64,000 bases of DNA from the NCBI GenBank assembly GCA_000146045.2, contig BK006948.2, positions 928,001 to 992,000 on the forward strand, written 5' to 3'. A program made the position numbers and the translations under genes. Origin of the DNA: TPA_inf: Saccharomyces (lineage: Eukaryota). Below the pieces are notes generated by a model. The model worked only from the letters and a program-made list of their open reading frames with translations. It did no database searches and was not told where the DNA came from. This document shows positions 16,596 to 48,493 of this stretch, in pieces; position 1 is the stretch's first letter; each line of letters starts with the position of its first letter.

Positions 16596-18008
16596 ATGAA
16601 TCGGCGTCTCCTGGTACGTTCTATATCTTGTTTCCAACCTTTGTCGAGAATAACTTTTGGAAGACCAAACACGCCATTTCTTAGAAAGTATGCTGACACA
16701 TCCACTGCTGCAAACACCAACAGCACCATATTGCGGAAACAGTTACTATCGTTGAAGCCCATTTCTGCCTCTGATTCACTGTTCATTTCGTGTACGGTAT
16801 TCAATTCTAAGGGAAATATTATCTCAATGTCCGAGAAGTTTCCTAAATGGTCCTTTTTAACTGAACATTCCCTTTTCCCCAGAGACCTGAGGAAAATAGA
16901 TAACTCCTCTATTGATATTATTCCAACCATCATGTGTAAGCCAAACTGTATTGTCATCAACTTATTGCATATCAAAGCTCTTATCGAACGAGATAAGGTC
17001 TACGTCTTCGATACAACAAACCCTTCCGCCGCTGCCAAACTGAGTGTACTTATGTATGACTTGGAGTCTAAGTTGTCCTCCACCAAGAATAACTCTCAAT
17101 TTTACGAGCATAGAGCCCTCGAGAGTATTTTCATCAACGTAATGAGCGCACTGGAAACAGATTTCAAGCTTCACTCACAAATCTGTATTCAAATCTTAAA
17201 TGATCTGGAAAACGAGGTCAATAGACTTAAACTGCGGCATCTTTTAATTAAGTCCAAAGATCTTACGCTTTTTTACCAAAAAACTTTATTGATTAGAGAT
17301 CTATTAGATGAACTATTAGAAAACGACGATGATTTAGCAAACATGTACTTGACAGTTAAGAAGTCTCCTAAGGACAATTTTTCGGACTTGGAAATGCTTA
17401 TAGAGACGTACTACACCCAATGTGATGAATACGTTCAGCAATCAGAATCTTTGATTCAGGATATCAAATCTACTGAAGAAATTGTCAACATCATATTGGA
17501 CGCAAATAGAAATTCCTTAATGTTGTTGGAGTTGAAAGTTACCATCTACACGTTGGGATTCACAGTAGCATCTGTTCTGCCGGCATTCTATGGTATGAAT
17601 TTAAAGAATTTCATCGAGGAGAGTGAATGGGGGTTTACTTCAGTGGCGGTATTTTCTATTGTTTCTGCCCTTTATATCACCAAGAAAAATTTTAATTCTT
17701 TAAGATCCGTGACAAAGATGACCATGTATCCAAACTCACCCGCAAACTCCAGTGTGTATCCTAAAACATCAGCGTCTATTGCCCTGACAAATAAACTAAA
17801 GCGAAGGCGGAAGTGGTGGAAATCAACCAAGCAGCGGTTGGGAGTGCTACTTTATGGCAGCAGCTACACTAATAAGGCTAACCTGTCGAATAATAAGATT
17901 AATAAAGGTTTTTCAAAGGTGAAGAAATTTAACATGGAGAATGATATTAAGAACAAGCAGAACAGAGATATGATTTGGAAATGGTTGATAGAAGACAAGA
18001 AAAATTGA
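16596..18008 (+). CDS. MRS2: Mitochondrial inner-membrane Mg2+ channel of the CorA/Mrs2 family, 470 aa.
   Basis: It has an ATG start and encodes 470 aa. The signature GMN motif (FYGMNLKNF) lies between two C-terminal transmembrane helices. It has a mitochondrial presequence-like N-terminus. Confidence 0.9.
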   Translation: MNRRLLVRSISCFQPLSRITFGRPNTPFLRKYADTSTAANTNSTILRKQLLSLKPISASDSLFISCTVFNSKGNIISMSEKFPKWSFLTEHSLFPRDLRKIDNSSIDIIPTIMCKPNCIVINLLHIKALIERDKVYVFDTTNPSAAAKLSVLMYDLESKLSSTKNNSQFYEHRALESIFINVMSALETDFKLHSQICIQILNDLENEVNRLKLRHLLIKSKDLTLFYQKTLLIRDLLDELLENDDDLANMYLTVKKSPKDNFSDLEMLIETYYTQCDEYVQQSESLIQDIKSTEEIVNIILDANRNSLMLLELKVTIYTLGFTVASVLPAFYGMNLKNFIEESEWGFTSVAVFSIVSALYITKKNFNSLRSVTKMTMYPNSPANSSVYPKTSASIALTNKLKRRRKWWKSTKQRLGVLLYGSSYTNKANLSNNKINKGFSKVKKFNMENDIKNKQNRDMIWKWLIEDKKN

Positions 18009-18232: not shown

Positions 18233-21109
18233 TTAAATGGAAAGCTTCTCCTTGAACAAACTTTCCAAATCATCAACTGCATCCTTTATAGCGGCTGGTT
18301 TATCACCCATACCTTGGAAAACATTACCTTTACCACCAGCCTTACCGCCGATGATACTGGACACCTTTTTGGCAAGCGCAGAACCATCAATACCCTTGGC
18401 TAAAGCAGCATTGGAGATGTAACAACCGTGAGCAACACGACCTTCAGGGTCATTACCTGCCAATAAATAGATTGACTTGTCTTTGACAGAATCATTGGAT
18501 TTCATGTAGTTGATCGCTTCAGTGATAGCTTTAGCATTTGGAGAAATATCAATGAATTTAACTAGGTATGGAGCATTCTCATTGGTTTCGAAAAATGTCT
18601 TCACTTCATCAAGAGTTTGTTTGTTTTCTTTTTTGGCCCTTGACTTAACTTCATCCTTCACTGCTTTTTCAATTTTGTTAAATTTCTGCTTCAGTTCATT
18701 TTTTGTGATAACAGAAATTGAAAGTTGACCAAGTTTGACACCAAGTTCCTTCAACTTCTTTTCTTTGATTGGAGAGAACGGCAGCTTGTCTGCAGCATCC
18801 AAATCAGCAGCAAACTGTTCAGCCAATCTTTGAGCTTCAAAGGCTTCAGTTCCAGTAACAGCAACAATTCTTCTGATACCCTTTGCAATACCGCTCTCTT
18901 CTAAAATGACGAAGTATTTAATATCGCCTGTCTTGTTGACATGGGTACCACCGCAAAATTCAATAGAATACTTGGTCCACTCTTCGTTAGCTGGGTTGGC
19001 CAACAATTCTTCGATTGGCTTACCAACAGAAACTACACGAACTGGATCTGGGTAAGTCTCACCAAAGACAGCACGAACACCATCAATGGATTTGGCCAAG
19101 TCCAATGGAATTTCCTTGTAAAACACTTGTAAGTTTTCTTTAATTTGCTCATTACAGATATCTTCAACTTTTTTCAATTCTTCATTTGACACAGCCTTTT
19201 TATGAGAGAAATCGAATCTCAATTTTTCTGGGGCAACCAAAGAACCCTTTTGATCGACATCATTACCCAAAGTTTCCTTCAGAGCAAAGTTTAAGATATG
19301 TGTACCAGTATGATTGTTCTTAATAGGGAAACGACGTAGTTCATCGAATGAAGCGATAATCTTGTCACCGACAGACAACTTACCTTCTTCTAAAGACCCG
19401 GTGTGGAAAACAAAACCGTTATACAATTGAACATTTTCAACATTAAACTCAGCAGCGTCATCAATAACAATTTTACCAGTGTCATATTCTTGACCACCTT
19501 GTTCGGCGTAGAAACATGTTTTATCCAAAATAATACCGTACTTCTTACCTGGTTCAGTGATCTCATCAACAAAGTTGGTACCGTCATGCAGTTTCAAAAT
19601 GGTACCTTCGACGTTGGCGCTGCCGTATTTGAATTCATCATTAGTCTTGGGCACCTTAGCATCGTTCAACTCGGATAATTCATGGACGTTTAACTTAATC
19701 AAATCACTTTGGTCCTTCTTACCACCTCTTTTGGATGCTTCGTATGACTCTTGTTTGGCCTTTTCGAAACCGGGTCCATCAATCTTCAAGCCTTGTTCTT
19801 CAGCCATCAATTCAGTCAAGTCGACTGGGAAACCATAAGTGTCGTAAAGTCTCCAAACTTGTTTACCGTCTAAAGTCTTAGATTCAGTCTTAGAAGCAGC
19901 AGAAGCATATTTTTCAAATAGTCTTTCACCACGATCCAAGGTCTTAGCGAAAGAAGCTTCTTCTTCATCCAAGATTTCAAAGAGGAATGCAGGATCCTTG
20001 GCTAATTCGGGAAAGATATCTTGAACCTGAGAAATTAAAGTTGGAGCCAAAGTGGAGAAAAAGTTACCGATTGGGTAATTCATGTATTTACGGGCGTAAC
20101 GGGCACCTCTTCTTAGAATGCGTCTCAAAACATATCCTCTACCTTCATTGTTTGGAACGCCACCGTCAGCTAAGGCAAAAGTCAATGTACGGACATGATC
20201 AGCTAAAACTCTGTAGGCAGTATCGATACCGTCCTTGTCATTCTCACCAAAATTGCCAGAATATGGTCTAACTGAAGTGATTTCTTGGATACGCTCGAAC
20301 AAAGGTGTGAAAACATCGGTATCATAGTTAGATCTAACATCTTGCAGAACAGAAACCAATCTTTCGAACCCCATACCTGTGTCGATATGCTTGGCAGGTA
20401 AAGGCTTCAAAGACCCGTCTTGTTCTCTGTTGAATTGAATGAAAACCAAATTCCAAACTTCCAAGACATCAGGGTCGTCCATATTAACCAAGGAAGCAGC
20501 ATTTCTACCACCTATTCTATCGTAGTGAATTTCAGAACAAGGACCACATGGGCCTTGGTCACCCATTTCCCAAAAGTTGTCCTTTGCATTACCAGGTAAT
20601 ATATGGTCATCGGGAACACCAACATTTTTCCATAGTTCACGGGCTTCAGTATCAGGTTCCAAGCCTAACTTTTCATCACCTTCAAAATAGGTAACGTATA
20701 ATCTATCCTTTGGAATGCCGTATACTTCAGTCAACAAAGTCCATGAGTAAGTAATAGCTTCCTTCTTGAAATAGTCGCCAAACGACCAGTTACCCAGCAT
20801 TTCAAAAAAGGTATGATGATAAGAATCCTTACCGACATCTTCTAAATCGTTGTGTTTACCACCAGCTCTGATACACTTTTGAGAGTTGTAAGCCCTTTTC
20901 AAGGTGTAGAAATCGGAAGCTGGATCGACAGTACCTAAAAAGATAGGCTTGTATTGGTTCATACCGGCATTAGCGAAAAGTAAAGTTGGATCATCAAATG
21001 GAACTACTGGAGAGGATTTGACAAACTTGTGTTCTTTAGATTTGAAATAGTCTAGAAAGGTATTACGGACATTAGTAGCGGTCCATTTTTGCTTATCACC
21101 GATCGTCAT
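18233..21109 (-). CDS. ALA1: Alanyl-tRNA synthetase, cytoplasmic form of 958 aa, from the ATG at 21107-21109. The ORF-track start at 21157 is a TTG codon.
   Basis: It has the class II AlaRS core, the editing domain, and the C-terminal DHHA1-like region ([13 protein letters not shown]). The sequence from MTIGDKQKW onward is the known AUG-initiated form. An in-frame upstream extension back to ACG-ACG at 21179-21184 is present. Confidence 0.9.
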
Positions 21110-21772
21110 TATGGTTCTAGTTGATGTAGTTAATTGCTTCTTGAAAGAAAGAGTCAAGTTCCTTAATCCGGTAGTTGACGTCGTCTTGTCTTAAATAAGA
21201 AGATGTTGGAAGCACGCCTTTTTTGTAATTCTATTTAAAAAAAACCGACTTTGTTCAATCAAACTGCTTTCATATCTGATAGCAGTCGCCAACTGCGTTT
21301 TTCTTGTTTTACTCATCATCCATCGAGCGGATGAAAAAAAAGAGAAAAAAGAAACGGCCAATCCGTTGATCATGATTAAATAAAATATAGGGTTCTGAAT
21401 TGTTAGGTTTAATCTGCAAATTATTCAGGTCATCGTTGACTTTTTTGCAGGGCACTAAAAACCGCTAACATAGGACGGTATATTGCTGATTTTAGACTTA
21501 ACTTCTTGGTGTAGTCGTCTCTGAACATGGCATGATACAGCTTTGGTGGGTCACTAGAACAATTTGAATCTTGCTCAGCACGCTCTGTCTTACGTATATA
21601 TCCAATTTCAGTTGATTCGAAAGACATGAAAGATTATTAATGTGTGCATTACCCGGATTGTCAATAACTCATATAGTTAGTATACTAATTAACTAACTAT
21701 ATAACGTGGCATATTAAAGATTAATTGTCCTGGTAGAATATAGACGTATCAGTGTGAGTGCCTCTGTTGATT

Positions 21773-24700
21773 ATGAGACTACTTGCGTTGGTATTGTTAT
21801 TGTTGTGTGCGCCGCTTCGTGCATGGACTTATAGCTTACGATATGGCATACCCGAATCTGCTCAGGTCTGGTCTATTTTAGTTCATTTACTGGGCGATGT
21901 TGATAATCAGCTGTTAACTAATTTATATCCTTTGGTTACCGGTTTGGATGACGAGATTGATATTCAAGAAAATCTTGTGGCGCTAACTTCCAATGTATTA
22001 AGGGAGCGATACGATAAAGAGGATGTGGCTGATTTATTGGAACTGTATGCTAGTCTTTACCCTATGGGTATGATACAGCACGATATCAGTTCCAATGCAG
22101 AACAAGACGATGCAAATAGTAGCTATTTCGTTTTGAATGGTAATAGGTACGAAAAGCCCGACGACGTGTTCTACTTGAAATCTAAGGATTTAACAATTCA
22201 ACAGAAAGTCCCAGATGTTGATGTTATACAACCTTACGATGTTGTCATTGGTACTAACTCAGAAGCGCCGATATTGATCTTGTACGGTTGTCCTACCGTT
22301 ATTGACTCCGACTTCGAAGAATTCAATAGGAATTTATTTATGGAAGCAATGAATGGAGAGGGAAAATTTAGATTTATTTGGAGATCCACATGTTCCCTTG
22401 ATGGGAAAAGCGTGGAGTATCCCTTAACTCATCCGCTTGAAATTACTTTACAAAATGGTTCTAGAATGAGCTCCATACCTCAATTAAAAAAAATACTATA
22501 TACTGTACCCAAAGAAATATTGGTTGGAGCAGACAACGATGATCAGCTCCATGATCTAGAACCAGAAGAATTACGTGAACTTGATTTGAGAGTAACATCG
22601 TTAATCTCAGAATTTTACCAATATAAAAAGGATATCACAGCCACTCTAAATTTCACCAAAAGTATTGTTAACAACTTTCCACTAATCTCTAAACAACTGA
22701 TTAAGGTTTCATCTGTTAACAAGGATATAATAACAAGTAATGAAGAACTCAATAGTAAAGGCTTCGATTACAACATGCTAGGTCTCTATATTAATGGACA
22801 GAATTGGAAAATTACCTCACTGACTCCGTACAATTTGCTTACTGCTTTAAAAACTGAATACCAAAGTTTACTGAAAATTACGAACCTTTTGCAAGAACTC
22901 GAGCCATCGAAATGCATACTAGATTCCAAGTTTTTACTCAATAAGTTTTCTCAATTTTCATTGGGGAAGTTGCAAAACTTACAACCAATCAAAATGGATC
23001 TCCACACAATTCCAGGGTTCTCAGAATCAGTAATATACTTCAATGATATCGAAAGCGACCCGCAATATGACGAATTAGTAAATAGTGTTCAAGCATTTTT
23101 TGATAAATCGAAATTCGGAGAGTTGCCTGAAATAAAGCAAAACTGGTCAGAGATCATATTCGTTATAGATTTCGCCCGTTTAGAAGATAGTGAGGTGAAG
23201 GAGGCATTGGGTGGGTTGGTTCGTGCCGTTAATGTTGTCTCCCAGGGATATCCGCAAAGAGTCGGACTATTGCCATTTAGTTCAGATAGTGACAAGTCCG
23301 TTGTTAATAAAATTTACGAGCTGAAGAACTCAACTGACAATTTAACAGAATTAAAAAGTTTTTTGGAGACAATGCTGCTTGCAGATGGCCTTTCCGCGAA
23401 TGCAAAACATTCAAAACACATACCAGTTCCAGATGTTTTCCATCTACTTGATGAACTTCAAATTGACGAAACATCAATTATAATCAATGGAGAGATTTAC
23501 CCATTTAGAAAAAATGCTTGGAATTATTTAATTGCAAAAGTTATCAAAAAGGACACTGAATTTATTCGTAAAGAATTGAGCAATTCTTCTCCGAAAAACA
23601 AACAAATTAGCGTAAGGGACTTATTGCATTACAAATCTGCAAATCTGAGACATAATAAATATACACCAAATTATTTTGCTGATTCGGTATATTCTTCGGT
23701 CAACAATACTGCATTGGAAAGCGTATGCTCAGAAAGAATAGGCTACTATACTAAAAATGAAGAATACAATTTATTACACACAATCACATTAGTGGATGAT
23801 TTTGGCTCTATTCATGCTTTGAAAAGATTGAGAAACTTGTTGCATACTTCCTTTGTTGGTGTTAGGATCAGAATCATTCACGTAGGTGATATTTCTGATA
23901 TTTGGTATCAATTGCGTGGAAGTCTTTCCCAAAAAGATCCAATAGGCTCAATAAATACATTTATTGATGCTTTGAAACTTAAAAAGGTAAAAAGTCACAC
24001 GTACAAAAAAAGCGGCTTAAACCAGTTAGGCCTTCATAAATGGCTTCCTGACATTCCATTATTTGAATTGCAAAAGGGTTCATTTATTGCTTTGAACGGT
24101 AGATTTATTCATCTTGATCAAAATGAAGTGCCAGAAACAGAACATTTCGAAGCAATCATAAAGAGAGAAGCTCTAAGAACGATCGATTCAGTTTTCGCCC
24201 TAGATTTACTTTTTCCAGGTTTCTCACAGGAAATAATCAATCCTGATTTGATAGAAATGATCTCCTCCATTTTAACTAGGTTGTTTTACCAAGGTACACA
24301 TATATACAATAATGGTATTGATTATACCACTGAAAGTAGCTTACCAAGAATGGATTTGAGCGAGTTTTTTAGACCTAATAATTTAACGATGTTTGAAGAT
24401 GGAAAATCAGCTTCTATTGATTTACTACTAATTTTAGATCCACTTGAAGAGAGAACGCAAATGATTCTTTCTCTTGTTGAGCAATTCAGGCCTTTGAAAT
24501 TTGTTAATATTCAGGTAATTTTAATGCCGACACTGGAATTAAACATTGTCCCTATTAGAAGAATATACGTTGATGACGCAGATATTGTCAAATCAATAAC
24601 TTCTGAGGATAGCAGATCAGATCCAGAAGTAGATATTGAAATGGATGTTCCTAATTCTTTCATTGTAGATAATAATTATCGGATAAAAAAATTGCTCATA

Positions 24701-25870
24701 GAATTACATTCCTTCTCTAGCAAAACAGTCCTTTCAACTGGCAATATTGATGGTATGGGGGGTGTATGCCTAGCACTTGTCGATTCTGCAGGGAACATTA
24801 TTGACAAAACTACAACAATGAAAACCTTTGGCTATGGACAATTTCATACCGACAAATTTTTAAAGGGTTGCTATATAAAAAGTTGTGATTCAAGATATAC
24901 CGTTCAGTCATTTTCTACTGACGGGCATCCCGACTTTATACCATCAGATTCCTTGGATATACTGTCGTACAATCCACAAAAAATCGCTGTAAAAATTTCA
25001 GAAGAGCCTACACACGAGGAAGAATACGAGGAAGGTCGCAACAATGATACAATAATCAATATTTTTACTATTTTAGAGTCCGGGCCAGATGAGGAAGAGA
25101 GGTACATGCAAATGATTTTATCCATTTTGTCAAAGTGTCCCGAAACGCAAAAGGTGAATTTTTTCATTTTAGATCAGCCGTTTATCTCCGACACTTTAAG
25201 GAAATCATGTGAGTATATAAATTCCTCTGATGAAATGAGAGGCAATGTCATTTTTTTGAATTATGAATGGCCTCAATGGTTAAGACCGCAAAGATTTTCT
25301 TCAAGGAGAAGGGATGTCTCTAGATTTCTGTTCTTGGATGTCCTTTTACCTCAAAACATCTCCAAAGTGTTATATATGAGTCCAACTGAAGTACCGCTGG
25401 ATCCTTTTGACATTTTTCAATTTCAAGGCCTCAAACGTGCACCTCTAGGACTATTCCGAATGAGTGGTGATGGTTATTGGAAAGAAGGATACTGGGAAAA
25501 AATGTTAAGGGAGAATAATTTAGAATTTTATTCTACCGAACCGGCCTTTTTAGTAAACTTAGAGAGGTTTCGGGAGTTAGATGCTGGTGATAAATACAGG
25601 ATTCACTATCAACGTATTTCTACAGACGCCATGTCTCTTGTCAATATCGGCCAAGATCTAGTTAACAACCTACAACTCGAGGTTCCGATTAGGTTTCTCA
25701 AGGGATCGTATAAGAAGAAATTAGTTATTAATGATGAATGTGTTTCTGAATGGAAGAAAAAAATAAATAAGTTCGCATCCTCTCCTGGCGATGAAGACGT
25801 ACCTGGAGAAAGTGTTAGCAGCAAATACCAAGATTCCGACAATGCCGCTCCTCTGCATGACGAATTATAA
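21773..25870 (+). CDS. KRE5: UDP-glucose:glycoprotein glucosyltransferase-like ER protein required for beta-1,6-glucan synthesis, 1365 aa. The ORF-track start at 21758 is a GTG; the real ATG is at 21773.
   Basis: It has an N-terminal signal peptide (MRLLALVLLLLCAPLRAW) and a C-terminal HDEL ER-retention signal. A C-terminal GT8-like glucosyltransferase domain is present. Confidence 0.9.
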   Translation: MRLLALVLLLLCAPLRAWTYSLRYGIPESAQVWSILVHLLGDVDNQLLTNLYPLVTGLDDEIDIQENLVALTSNVLRERYDKEDVADLLELYASLYPMGMIQHDISSNAEQDDANSSYFVLNGNRYEKPDDVFYLKSKDLTIQQKVPDVDVIQPYDVVIGTNSEAPILILYGCPTVIDSDFEEFNRNLFMEAMNGEGKFRFIWRSTCSLDGKSVEYPLTHPLEITLQNGSRMSSIPQLKKILYTVPKEILVGADNDDQLHDLEPEELRELDLRVTSLISEFYQYKKDITATLNFTKSIVNNFPLISKQLIKVSSVNKDIITSNEELNSKGFDYNMLGLYINGQNWKITSLTPYNLLTALKTEYQSLLKITNLLQELEPSKCILDSKFLLNKFSQFSLGKLQNLQPIKMDLHTIPGFSESVIYFNDIESDPQYDELVNSVQAFFDKSKFGELPEIKQNWSEIIFVIDFARLEDSEVKEALGGLVRAVNVVSQGYPQRVGLLPFSSDSDKSVVNKIYELKNSTDNLTELKSFLETMLLADGLSANAKHSKHIPVPDVFHLLDELQIDETSIIINGEIYPFRKNAWNYLIAKVIKKDTEFIRKELSNSSPKNKQISVRDLLHYKSANLRHNKYTPNYFADSVYSSVNNTALESVCSERIGYYTKNEEYNLLHTITLVDDFGSIHALKRLRNLLHTSFVGVRIRIIHVGDISDIWYQLRGSLSQKDPIGSINTFIDALKLKKVKSHTYKKSGLNQLGLHKWLPDIPLFELQKGSFIALNGRFIHLDQNEVPETEHFEAIIKREALRTIDSVFALDLLFPGFSQEIINPDLIEMISSILTRLFYQGTHIYNNGIDYTTESSLPRMDLSEFFRPNNLTMFEDGKSASIDLLLILDPLEERTQMILSLVEQFRPLKFVNIQVILMPTLELNIVPIRRIYVDDADIVKSITSEDSRSDPEVDIEMDVPNSFIVDNNYRIKKLLIELHSFSSKTVLSTGNIDGMGGVCLALVDSAGNIIDKTTTMKTFGYGQFHTDKFLKGCYIKSCDSRYTVQSFSTDGHPDFIPSDSLDILSYNPQKIAVKISEEPTHEEEYEEGRNNDTIINIFTILESGPDEEERYMQMILSILSKCPETQKVNFFILDQPFISDTLRKSCEYINSSDEMRGNVIFLNYEWPQWLRPQRFSSRRRDVSRFLFLDVLLPQNISKVLYMSPTEVPLDPFDIFQFQGLKRAPLGLFRMSGDGYWKEGYWEKMLRENNLEFYSTEPAFLVNLERFRELDAGDKYRIHYQRISTDAMSLVNIGQDLVNNLQLEVPIRFLKGSYKKKLVINDECVSEWKKKINKFASSPGDEDVPGESVSSKYQDSDNAAPLHDEL

Positions 25871-42286: not shown

Positions 42287-42618
42287 TGTTGGAATAAAAA
42301 TCAACTATCATCTACTAACTAGTATTTACGTTACTAGTATATTATCATATACGGTGTTAGAAGATGACGCAAATGATGAGAAATAGTCATCTAAATTAGT
42401 GGAAGCTGAAACGCAAGGATTGATAATGTAATAGGATCAATGAATATTAACATATAAAACGATGATAATAATATTTATAGAATTGTGTAGAATTGCAGAT
42501 TCCCTTTTATGGATTCCTAAATCCTCGAGGAGAACTTCTAGTATATCTACATACCTAATATTATAGCCTTAATCACAATGGAATCCCAACAATTACATCA
42601 AAATCCACATTGTCCACA
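42287..42618 (+). repeat. Ty2 5' LTR (delta), 332 bp, with TG...CA termini. The TYA ATG at 42578 lies inside it.
   Basis: It starts TGTTGGAATAAAAATC and ends CCACA, immediately followed by the primer-binding site. Confidence 0.9.
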
Positions 42619-43894
42619 TGGTAGCGCCTATGCTTCGGTTACTTCTAAGGAAGTCCCATCAAATCAAGATCCGTTAGCCGTTTCAGCTTCCAATTTACCG
42701 GAATTTGATAGAGATTCCACTAAGGTTAATTCTCAAGAAGAGACAACACCTGGGACATCAGCTGTTCCAGAGAACCATCATCATGTCTCTCCTCAACCTG
42801 CTTCAGTACCACCTCCACAGAATGGACAGTACCAACAGCACGGCATGATGACCCCAAACAAAGCTATGGCTTCTAACTGGGCACATTACCAACAACCATC
42901 TATGATGACGTGTTCACATTATCAAACGTCACCTGCGTATTATCAACCGGACCCACACTATCCGCTGCCACAGTATATCCCACCGCTGAGTACTTCCTCA
43001 CCTGATCCAATCGATTCACAGGATCAACACTCTGAAGTACCTCAAGCTAAGACAAAGGTGAGAAATAATGTCTTACCACCACACCCACACACATCAGAAG
43101 AAAACTTTTCTACATGGGTTAAATTTTACATCAGATTTTTGAAGAACTCTAATCTCGGTGACATTATTCCAAATGACCAGGGTGAAATCAAAAGACAAAT
43201 GACTTATGAAGAACATGCGTATATATACAATACCTTCCAAGCATTTGCCCCATTTCATTTATTGCCAACATGGGTAAAACAAATTTTAGAAATTAATTAT
43301 TCTGACATCCTTACAGTCCTTTGTAAAAGTGTGTCCAAAATGCAAACTAACAATCAAGAATTAAAAGATTGGATAGCTCTTGCCAACCTTGAGTACAACG
43401 GAAGTACATCTGCTGATACATTTGAAATTACAGTCAGCACGATCATTCAAAGGCTAAAAGAAAACAATATCAATGTTAGCGACAGATTGGCCTGTCAACT
43501 AATACTTAAAGGTCTATCCGGTGATTTCAAATACCTACGTAATCAATATCGTACCAAAACGAACATGAAACTTTCCCAATTATTCGCTGAAATTCAATTA
43601 ATATATGACGAAAATAAAATCATGAATCTAAATAAACCGTCCCAATACAAACAACACAGCGAATACAAAAATGTTTCTCGCACATCTCCAAACACGACTA
43701 ACACGAAGGTTACAACTCGTAATTATCATAGAACAAATAGTTCAAAACCAAGAGCAGCAAAAGCTCACAATATTGCTACATCCAGTAAATTCTCAAGGGT
43801 GAACAATGATCACATTAATGAATCAACCGTTTCATCACAATACTTAAGCGATGACAACGAACTTAGTCTTAGGCCAGCAACAGAAAGAATCTAA
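42578..43894 (+). CDS. TY2A: Ty2 TYA (Gag), 438 aa.
   Basis: It has an ATG within the 5' LTR. The sequence [23 protein letters not shown]... is the characteristic Ty Gag N-terminus. Confidence 0.9.
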
Positions 43895-46800
43895 GCCAAC
43901 ACGCACAATAGACTCGAATGACGAACTACCTGATCACCTTCTTATTGATTCAGGAGCTTCGCAAACGCTTGTCAGATCAGCCCATTATTTACACCATGCA
44001 ACACCCAATTCTGAAATAAACATAGTCGATGCTCAAAAACAAGACATTCCTATAAATGCCATTGGTAATCTTCACTTCAACTTTCAGAACGGCACCAAAA
44101 CATCAATAAAAGCACTACACACACCAAACATAGCCTATGATCTATTAAGTTTGAGTGAGCTGACTAACCAAAATATTACTGCCTGCTTTACCAGAAACAC
44201 TTTAGAAAGATCGGATGGTACAGTACTAGCTCCCATAGTCAAACATGGAGACTTTTACTGGTTATCTAAAAAATACCTAATTCCTTCGCACATTTCAAAG
44301 CTAACAATAAACAACGTCAACAAAAGCAAAAGCGTAAATAAATATCCATATCCGTTAATACATCGAATGCTTGGACATGCTAACTTCCGAAGTATTCAGA
44401 AGTCTCTTAAGAAGAATGCAGTTACATATTTGAAAGAATCGGATATTGAATGGTCTAACGCTAGCACATATCAATGTCCTGACTGTCTAATCGGCAAAAG
44501 CACGAAACATAGGCATGTCAAAGGATCACGACTAAAGTACCAAGAATCATATGAGCCTTTTCAGTACTTGCATACCGATATATTTGGTCCTGTACATCAC
44601 TTACCGAAAAGTGCACCTTCTTACTTTATATCGTTTACAGATGAGAAAACCAGATTCCAATGGGTGTACCCATTACACGACCGTCGTGAAGAATCTATCC
44701 TCAATGTTTTTACATCGATATTAGCATTTATTAAGAACCAATTCAATGCTCGCGTTCTAGTTATCCAGATGGATCGTGGCTCCGAGTACACTAACAAAAC
44801 TCTTCATAAGTTCTTTACGAACAGAGGTATTACTGCATGCTATACAACCACGGCAGATTCTAGAGCACACGGTGTCGCTGAACGATTAAATCGTACTTTA
44901 TTAAACGATTGTCGCACACTGCTTCATTGCAGTGGTCTACCAAATCATCTATGGTTCTCAGCAGTCGAATTTTCTACTATAATCAGAAATTCATTAGTCT
45001 CACCAAAAAACGATAAATCTGCAAGACAACATGCAGGTTTAGCTGGACTGGACATTACTACTATACTACCTTTCGGTCAACCGGTTATAGTTAACAACCA
45101 TAATCCTGACTCGAAAATACATCCTCGTGGCATTCCAGGTTACGCCTTACATCCATCACGAAACTCTTATGGCTATATTATCTATCTTCCATCCTTAAAA
45201 AAGACAGTAGATACTACCAATTACGTTATATTACAAAACAATCAAACGAAATTGGACCAGTTCGACTACGATACACTCACTTTTGATGATGATCTCAATC
45301 GTTTAACAGCCCATAACCAATCTTTTATTGAACAAAATGAAACGGAGCAGTCATATGATCAAAATACAGAATCTGATCATGACTATCAATCGGAGATTGA
45401 AATAAACTCTGATCCTCTAGTGAACGATTTCTCGTCCCAATCATTGAACCCTTTACAATTAGACAAGGAACCAGTCCAAAAGGTACGTGCACCAAAAGAA
45501 GTTGATGCCGACATATCTGAATACAATATTCTTCCATCTACTATACGATCTCGTACACCCCATATCATTAATAAAGAGAGTACCGAAATGGGTGGTACCA
45601 TTGAATCAGATACTACTTCACCTAGACACTCGTCTACCTTCACTGCACGAAACCAAAAGCGACCTGGTAGTCCCAACGATATGATTGATTTGACCTCACA
45701 GGATAGAGTTAATTATGGACTTGAAAACATCAAAACTACACGTTTGGGTGGTACGGAGGAACCATATATTCAACGAAATAGTGATACAAATATCAAATAC
45801 AGGACTACAAACAGTACGCCCTCAATAGATGACCGTTCGTCCAACAGTGACTCCACTACTCCCATCATCTCCATAGAAACAAAGGCTGCATGTGATAATA
45901 CACCCTCCATTGATACGGATCCGCCAGAATATCGCTCTTCTGACCATGCGACTCCTAATATAATGCCTGACAAATCCTCAAAAAATGTTACGGCTGATTC
46001 TATTCTTGACGACCTCCCACTTCCTGACTTAACCCATAAATCTCCTACGGACACTTCTGATGTTTCAAAAGATATCCCACACATACACTCTCGTCAGACT
46101 AATTCCAGTTTGGGTGGTATGGATGATTCTAATGTTCTGACTACTACCAAAAGTAAGAAAAGATCATTAGAAGATAATGAAACTGAAATTGAGGTATCCC
46201 GAGACACATGGAATAATAAGAATATGAGAAGTCTGGAACCACCAAGATCGAAGAAACGCATAAATTTAATTGCAGCAATAAAAGGAGTGAAATCGATCAA
46301 ACCAGTTCGAACGACCTTAAGATATGATGAAGCAATTACATATAATAAAGACAACAAAGAAAAAGACAGATATGTTGAAGCTTATCATAAAGAAATTAGC
46401 CAACTATTGAAAATGAACACTTGGGATACAAACAAATATTATGATAGAAATGACATAGATCCTAAAAAAGTAATAAACTCAATGTTTATATTTAACAAGA
46501 AACGTGATGGTACACACAAAGCTAGATTTGTTGCAAGAGGCGACATTCAACACCCCGATACATATGATTCTGATATGCAATCCAATACCGTACATCACTA
46601 TGCACTGATGACGTCATTGTCAATCGCATTAGACAATGACTATTATATCACACAGCTGGACATATCCTCTGCTTACTTATATGCTGATATCAAAGAAGAA
46701 TTATACATAAGACCTCCACCACATTTAGGTTTGAATGATAAGTTACTACGTTTGAGAAAATCACTCTATGGTTTGAAACAAAGTGGTGCAAACTGGTATG

Positions 46801-47891
46801 AAACCATTAAATCATATTTAATAAATTGTTGCGACATGCAAGAAGTTCGCGGATGGTCATGCGTATTTAAGAATAGTCAAGTAACAATTTGCTTATTCGT
46901 TGATGATATGATATTATTCAGCAAAGACTTAAATGCAAATAAGAAAATCATAACAACACTCAAGAAACAATACGATACAAAGATAATAAATCTGGGTGAA
47001 GGTGATAACGAAATTCAGTACGACATACTTGGATTAGAGATCAAATATCAAAGAAGCAAGTACATGAAATTAGGTATGGAAAAATCCTTGACAGAAAAAT
47101 TACCCAAACTAAACGTACCTTTGAACCCAAAAGGAAAGAAACTTAGAGCTCCAGGTCAACCAGGTCATTATATAGACCAGGATGAACTAGAAATAGATGA
47201 AGATGAATACAAAGAGAAAGTGCATGAAATGCAAAAGTTGATTGGTCTAGCTTCATATGTTGGATATAAATTTAGATTTGACTTACTATACTACATCAAC
47301 ACACTTGCTCAACATATACTATTCCCCTCTAGGCAAGTTTTAGACATGACATATGAGTTAATACAATTCATGTGGGACACTAGAGATAAACAATTAATAT
47401 GGCACAAAAACAAACCTACCAAGCCAGATAATAAACTAGTCGCAATAAGCGATGCTTCATATGGTAACCAACCATATTACAAGTCACAAATTGGTAACAT
47501 TTTCCTACTCAACGGAAAAGTGATTGGAGGAAAGTCGACAAAGGCTTCGTTAACATGCACTTCAACTACAGAAGCAGAAATACACGCAGTCAGTGAAGCT
47601 ATACCGCTATTGAATAACCTCAGTCACCTTGTGCAAGAACTTAACAAGAAACCAATTATTAAAGGCTTACTTACTGATAGTAGATCAACGATCAGTATAA
47701 TTAAGTCTACAAATGAAGAGAAATTTAGAAACAGATTTTTTGGCACAAAGGCAATGAGACTTAGAGATGAAGTATCAGGTAATAATTTATACGTATACTA
47801 CATCGAGACCAAGAAGAACATTGCTGATGTGATGACAAAACCTCTTCCGATAAAAACATTTAAACTATTAACAAACAAATGGATTCATTAG
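42578..47891 (+). CDS. TY2B: Ty2 TYA-TYB (Gag-Pol) fusion of 1770 aa, made by +1 ribosomal frameshifting: join(42578..43870, 43872..47891). It encodes protease, integrase and reverse transcriptase/RNase H.
   Basis: The frameshift heptamer CTTAGGC is at the TYA/TYB overlap. Integrase motifs (HHCC ...H...H...CPDC, and DD35E) and the RT YVDD motif (LFVDDM) are seen. Confidence 0.88.
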
Positions 47892-48420: not shown

Positions 48421-48493
48421 GCTTCAGTAGCTCAGTAGGAAGAGCGTCAGTCTCATAATCTGAAGGTCGAGAGTTCGAACCTCCCCTGGAGCA
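48421..48493 (+). tRNA. tM(CAU): Elongator tRNA-Met (anticodon CAU), 73 nt, no intron.
   Basis: It has a cloverleaf with anticodon loop CTCATAA and the T-arm/B-box GGTCGAGAGTTCGAACCTCC. A poly-T Pol III terminator follows immediately. It differs from the initiator tRNA sequence. Confidence 0.9.

Follow-up and report, generated by a model that had tools for sequence, protein, structure and literature searches.

A mechanism by which the ALA1 gene of Saccharomyces cerevisiae makes two isoforms of alanyl-tRNA synthetase (AlaRS), with the codons ACG(-25) and ACG(-24) upstream of its first ATG (ATG1) as initiators, was reportedly published by Tang et al. in 2004 (PMID 15358761, as cited in PMC2909995). 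The present analysis concerns ALA1 and the DNA upstream of ATG1 in a stretch of 64,000 nucleotides (nt) of S. cerevisiae DNA (GenBank assembly GCA_000146045.2, contig BK006948.2, positions 928,001 to 992,000 of the forward strand), which is referred to here as the window. The original prediction, made from the letters of this stretch, was that the ALA1 frame remains open upstream of ATG1 as far as a tandem ACG-ACG, from which a mitochondrial isoform is initiated. In our analysis, it is almost certain that one ALA1 mRNA gives both the cytoplasmic and the mitochondrial AlaRS by means of ACG(-25), ACG(-24) and leaky scanning.

PMC2909995 reports ACG(-25) and ACG(-24) as the start sites of the mitochondrial AlaRS, the first codon being the more robust and the pair being stronger than a single ACG. 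The mutation GGT(-25)/ACC(-24) eliminates the initiating activity of the pair, and the AlaRS-LexA bands that arise from ACG(-25) vanish once that codon is mutated. In addition, the isoform complemented mitochondrial AlaRS function, and the extension is drawn as a mitochondrial targeting signal (MTS) in Fig. 1A of that paper. Ribosome profiling gave a ratio of extension occupancy to main open reading frame (ORF) occupancy of approximately 0.1 at 30 C (PMC6898956), and occupancy of the extension increased 1.7-fold in the eIF1-L96P hypo-accuracy mutant (PMC7075259). Footprints located 5' of the ACG codons imply that the mRNA includes the ACG pair (PMC7075259), and the Ala1 extension was also picked up in a genome-wide screen with MTS predictors (PMC6582344). 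Similar presequences and candidate non-AUG starts have been described in A. gossypii, C. glabrata and K. lactis, and the presequence and non-AUG start of ALA2 in Vanderwaltozyma polyspora were tested by experiment (PMC3245939). The original prediction had also proposed a search for initiation footprints at the ACG codons, which in substance is already answered by the published profiling of elongating ribosomes together with the mutagenesis. The function of the ACG codons as starts, the mitochondrial AlaRS activity of the isoform and the ribosome occupancy of the extension are therefore taken here from the literature. This analysis itself gave the anatomy of the extension and the identity of ALA1, showed that the frame, the codons and their context are conserved, and found the composition to be presequence-like and the leader to be free of AUG.

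The tandem ACG codons and the frame upstream of ALA1

The locus is S. cerevisiae ALA1 (YOR335C), the coding sequence (CDS) of which runs from ATG1 to its stop codon on the minus strand at 18233-21109 and encodes a class II alanyl-tRNA synthetase. The product from ATG1 (21107-21109) is 958 amino acids long on exact re-translation and matches NP_014980.3, the S288C alanine--tRNA ligase, letter for letter. The extended form of 983 amino acids, with Met replacing the first Thr, is identical to UniProt P40825.3, which is named 'Alanine--tRNA ligase, mitochondrial'. The Pfam domains tRNA-synt_2c (E = 2.3e-229, residues 38-615), tRNA_SAD and DHHA1 form the AlaRS architecture of a catalytic core, a second additional domain related to editing and DHHA1 at the C-terminus, and the conserved neighbours of the gene, described below, agree with this identification.

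Read on the minus strand, the upstream DNA consists of an in-frame TAA (21193-21191), the two sense codons GAC AAG (21190-21185), ACG(-25) (21184-21182), ACG(-24) (21181-21179), 23 further sense codons and ATG1. The 23 codons between the ACG pair and ATG1 are TCA ACT ACC GGA TTA AGG AAC TTG ACT CTT TCT TTC AAG AAG CAA TTA ACT ACA TCA ACT AGA ACC ATA. The extension (21110-21184) thus comprises 25 codons, the first residue being Met if initiation occurs there, and the open frame comprises 27 codons when GAC AAG is included. Exact re-translation agreed with the original prediction on the 25 codons and on every letter of the peptide, and no in-frame stop, which had been named as a finding that would overturn the proposal, was present between the ACG pair and ATG1. 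The stop codon had been placed directly beside ACG-ACG, which was incorrect, as it lies two codons further 5'. This correction matters for the initiation context: with GAC AAG (21185-21190) between the TAA and the pair, ACG(-25) sits in a favourable context of A at -3, A at -2 and G at -1. This 'AAR' context is the most favourable for yeast non-AUG starts (PMC2909995, PMC3245939). The TAA (21191-21193) is codon -28 and closes the frame, so that an upstream in-frame AUG start is ruled out in S. cerevisiae.

The program-made ORF list begins ALA1 at a TTG whose first base is 21157 (codon -16, 21155-21157), which gives 974 amino acids as compared with 958 from ATG1. The remark that the listed protein is longer by 16 residues from a TTG was therefore correct, although the choice of this codon comes from a lister that uses the bacterial code, and the codon is not described as a native start in the literature. 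TTG(-16) has an AAC context, with A at -3, and is known as a cryptic, remedial initiation site (PMC2909995).

Leaky scanning from the ACG pair to ATG1 needs a leader that is free of AUG codons. There is no AUG between the pair and ATG1, and the nearest upstream ATG in any frame lies 164 nt 5' of ATG1 in S. cerevisiae. In 11 species the stretch before ATG1 that lacks ATG in all frames is at least 141 nt long, and it measures 337 and 191 nt in two loci added later. RNA folding of a segment of 136 nt that contains the ACG pair and ATG1 gave -16.9 kcal/mol, whereas its shuffles averaged -18.7 (z = +0.62); the segment is not more stable than its shuffles, and a downstream hairpin that enhances start-site selection is thus not indicated. 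An Rfam scan of 20600-22000 returned only sub-threshold matches, Phe_leader at 24 bits (gathering threshold 55) and SNORD107 at 20.5 bits (gathering threshold 50), which were taken as chance.

In the proposed mechanism, a minority of 40S subunits would initiate with Met-tRNAi at ACG(-25) in its AAG context, and the adjoining ACG(-24) would act as a back-up start. An ACG start would yield a precursor of 983 residues, the first 25 of which would serve as a mitochondrial matrix-targeting presequence and would be cleaved after import. Most subunits would pass the ACG pair, reach AUG1 and produce the cytoplasmic enzyme of 958 residues. The processed band seen in the published work derives from the ACG(-25)-initiated form and runs below the UUG(-16)-initiated form (PMC2909995). 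Since the processed band is the smaller of the two, cleavage must lie 3' of codon -16, and it probably occurs close to Arg(-3). A motif of the R-10 type (MPP plus Oct1), R8-N-L-T-L-S, was considered as the processing site and rejected, as the Ser is replaced by Phe in S. mikatae and the size of the processed band puts cleavage nearer ATG1. No evidence contradicting the two-isoform explanation was found in our analysis.

Conservation and composition of the extension

Thirteen orthologous loci from Saccharomycetaceae were compared: S. mikatae, S. uvarum, S. eubayanus, a second S. eubayanus-type copy, Naumovozyma dairenensis, Kazachstania africana, Maudiozyma barnettii, Huiozyma naganishii, Zygosaccharomyces rouxii, Lachancea thermotolerans, Eremothecium gossypii, a Nakaseomyces glabratus cluster and a Torulaspora delbrueckii cluster. 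The ALA1 frame is open for 19 to 125 codons 5' of the conserved MTIGDK start in all 13 loci. By comparison, for the other two frames upstream of ATG1, which were computed in 11 of the loci, the lowest counts of open codons are 0 and 3. When four Saccharomyces species (S. cerevisiae, S. mikatae, S. uvarum and S. eubayanus) are aligned, no gap column falls within the 75 nt that run from ACG(-25) up to ATG1, and 87% of these columns are invariant, which equals the value for the first 15 codons of the CDS. The region from -221 to -126 in the same species is 44% invariant and contains 34 gap columns, and some of its indels are not multiples of three. All four species share, without any change, the ACG-ACG pair (21179-21184), the AAG before it, and TTG(-16) together with its AAC context. 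The stop at codon -28 is not conserved: S. mikatae has TGA at this position, and both S. uvarum and S. eubayanus have the sense codon AAA.

An in-frame ACG in the AAR context was also found at codons -21 to -29 in five genera beyond Saccharomyces: AAA ACG at -24 in N. dairenensis, AAG ACG at -29 in M. barnettii, AAA ACG at -23 in Z. rouxii, AAG ACG at -21 in the N. glabratus cluster and AAA ACG at -24 in the T. delbrueckii cluster. From hexamer frequency, the chance expectation of such an element is approximately 0.009 per species.

Upstream of ATG1 in the K. africana orthologue of ALA1 there is a tandem in-frame ACG(-15)/ACG(-14) in a poor TTT context. This tandem and the Saccharomyces pair may be homologous or may have arisen independently.

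Homologue calls of 989 and 986 amino acids had suggested that some relatives use AUG-initiated presequences. This was rejected, as the DNA shows GTG starts in the N. glabratus and T. delbrueckii clusters. The calls are written with M because they come from a prokaryote-style gene caller, and they were used here only for the open frame and the composition of the peptide. More generally, gene calls from Logan/ENA assemblies may start at GTG and yet be written with M, and apparent AUG-initiated extensions of eukaryotic proteins in such calls need to be checked against the DNA.

The composition of the extension is presequence-like, as had been predicted from its hydroxylated and basic character. 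It contains four Lys or Arg residues, no Asp or Glu and 48% Ser or Thr, and its maximum hydrophobic moment is 0.58. A background was made from stop-free windows of 25 residues in the non-genic DNA of the window, and none of 10,789 of these combined zero acidic residues with at least four basic and at least 12 Ser/Thr residues; the hydrophobic moment did not form part of these joint criteria. The orthologous extensions contain three to five basic and zero to one acidic residues. The composition of the extension is remarkable, and its conservation across species is far beyond chance.

Rival origins for the mitochondrial isoform

The ALA1 frame might be open by chance in an untranslated leader, with the mitochondrial enzyme coming from another gene or relying on an internal targeting signal, but the probability of this is negligible in our estimation. 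The leaky-scanning explanation carries caveats, the first of which lends some weight to chance. Upstream open frames of this length are unremarkable taken alone: among the 17 long ATG ORFs of the window, 3 are open for 27 codons or more 5' of their first ATG, and the stop-triplet frequency in upstream regions (0.0545) gives P ~0.22 for 27 open codons. Open-frame length was dropped as a statistic for this reason, since it fails to set ALA1 apart from the other genes of the window. In addition, substitutions in the extension are distributed 3/2/5 over codon positions 1/2/3 and show no third-position excess, which indicates weak selection on the exact peptide sequence. Weak selection of this kind is typical of presequences, and all of the replacements retain the basic, hydrophobic or hydroxylated character. 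A chance frame does not agree with a reading frame that is open in all 13 loci while the other frames close early, with an extension free of indels at CDS-level conservation next to frame-breaking indels further 5', with a presequence-like composition that no background window shares, or with the published mutagenesis and ribosome footprints. In effect, the conservation and the published genetics have already refuted it. It is also very improbable, if slightly less so, that TTG(-16) is the physiological mitochondrial start in place of the ACG pair. This codon has A at -3, four Saccharomyces species preserve both the codon and its context without change, and UUG(-16) initiates in the CGC(-25) mutant (PMC2909995). 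However, the same work finds that GGT(-25)/ACC(-24) abolishes initiation by the pair and calls UUG(-16) remedial only, and the published change of TTG(-16) to TTA was made in the CGC mutant background only. A start at TTG(-16) would also lose Arg(-18) and leave a presequence of 16 residues, and the element found across genera is the in-frame AAR-ACG and not TTG. Conservation of TTG(-16) may reflect a Leu in the presequence peptide instead of start function. As the native start TTG(-16) is unlikely, and its strict conservation leaves room for a minor physiological role.

Translation of the extension could also begin at an in-frame AUG further 5'. The transcript might be longer, as occurs at the HTS1 and VAS1 genes discussed below, or the TAA might be read through from a 60-codon ORF at 21373-21191. 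Such an ATG ORF of 60 amino acids is present on the minus strand at 21191-21373; it shares the frame of ALA1 and is closed by the TAA that stands two codons 5' of ACG(-25). Its product includes acidic residues and gave no match in Pfam, and the stop at -28 is found in both S. cerevisiae and S. mikatae. In S. uvarum, which lacks the stop, the frame stays open for 125 codons and includes ATGs in frame at -62, -63 and -83, and in S. eubayanus it runs back 62 codons. However, indels that are not multiples of three separate even these sister species, so the segment is not conserved as coding sequence, and the published data assign initiation to the ACG codons (PMC2909995). For these reasons initiation at an upstream AUG is hardly credible, and the frame-breaking indels and the lack of a Pfam match argue that the segment at 21191-21373 is promoter or leader DNA. 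A wider reading, which we consider unlikely although not nearly as improbable as the preceding ones, is that start usage is more plural than two ACG codons. TTG(-16) would then be a third physiological start, longer isoforms could be made in S. uvarum and S. eubayanus from further near-cognate or AUG codons, and the AAR-ACG of six genera would be an ancient, conserved initiator that predates the whole-genome duplication. The duplication of ACG into a tandem would then be a later event in Saccharomyces, and perhaps an independent one in K. africana.

Neighbouring features and comparison with described systems

ALA1 is flanked by two plus-strand genes, one with MRS2-like Pfam domains at 16596-18008 and one with KRE5/UGGT-like Pfam domains (Glyco_transf_24 and thioredoxin-like) at 21773-25870. 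The same MRS2-like and KRE5/UGGT-like neighbours flank the ALA1 orthologues in other yeasts. Upstream of ALA1, at approximately 21300-21325 on the minus strand, a block that is nearly invariant in four Saccharomyces species (CGCTCGATGGATGATGAGTAAAACAAGAAAA) contains GATGAG. The GATGAG in this block presumably resembles the PAC promoter element of ribosome-biogenesis and translation genes. Elsewhere in the window, a long terminal repeat (LTR) retrotransposon of the Ty type lies at 42578-47891 on the plus strand. It contains a TYA capsid ORF of 438 amino acids (Pfam TYA, E = 5.5e-202) and, in another frame, an overlapping ORF at 43851-47891 with integrase, RVT_2 and Pol_BBD domains. The two ORFs are arranged as gag and pol classically are, with a programmed +1 frameshift. 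Approximately 500 nt 3' of the Ty element, at 48421-48493 on the plus strand, is a tRNA-Met gene (anticodon CAT), as is expected from the insertion of Ty elements beside genes transcribed by RNA polymerase III (Pol III).

Most of what has been described here is already known. Earlier publications cover the mechanism and its codons, the rule on context, the cryptic UUG(-16) and the evidence from profiling, and the form of 983 amino acids is in UniProt. What is mildly new is comparative only, namely an in-frame AAR-ACG common to six genera of Saccharomycetaceae and, in S. uvarum and S. eubayanus, the loss of the upstream stop. ALA1 is a textbook case in which non-AUG codons give a second isoform with a different location and in which repetition of a weak initiator raises its output. 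The locus is also instructive for annotation, as the RefSeq/SGD-style model of 958 amino acids omits the mitochondrial isoform and ORF finders that use the bacterial code choose a misleading TTG.

The match that the original prediction had drawn to the published ALA1 mechanism was upheld. The locus analysed here is the one described by Tang et al. 2004 and Chang et al. 2010 (PMC2909995), with the same protein, codons, positions, context and presequence of 25 residues, and no difference was found. The closest system at another locus is GRS1, which encodes glycyl-tRNA synthetase and, like ALA1, makes both a cytoplasmic form initiated at an AUG and a mitochondrial form whose start is a near-cognate codon, upstream and in frame, in an A-rich context. 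The extensions of both genes are visible in ribosome profiling (PMC6898956, PMC7075259). GRS1 differs in that it uses a single UUG(-23) and has no tandem ACG, and its extension increases 6-fold in eIF1-L96P as compared with 1.7-fold for ALA1 and also shows a stronger response to temperature (PMC7075259, PMC6898956). HTS1 and VAS1 resemble ALA1 in that a single nuclear gene serves both compartments and only one isoform carries a presequence. However, these genes use two in-frame AUGs on transcripts with different 5' ends, whereas ALA1, in which no in-frame AUG stands between the upstream stop and ATG1, relies on non-AUG initiation and leaky scanning. Lastly, V. polyspora has a duplicated gene with the two functions split between the copies, whereas in S. 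cerevisiae both functions are retained by one gene (PMC3245939).

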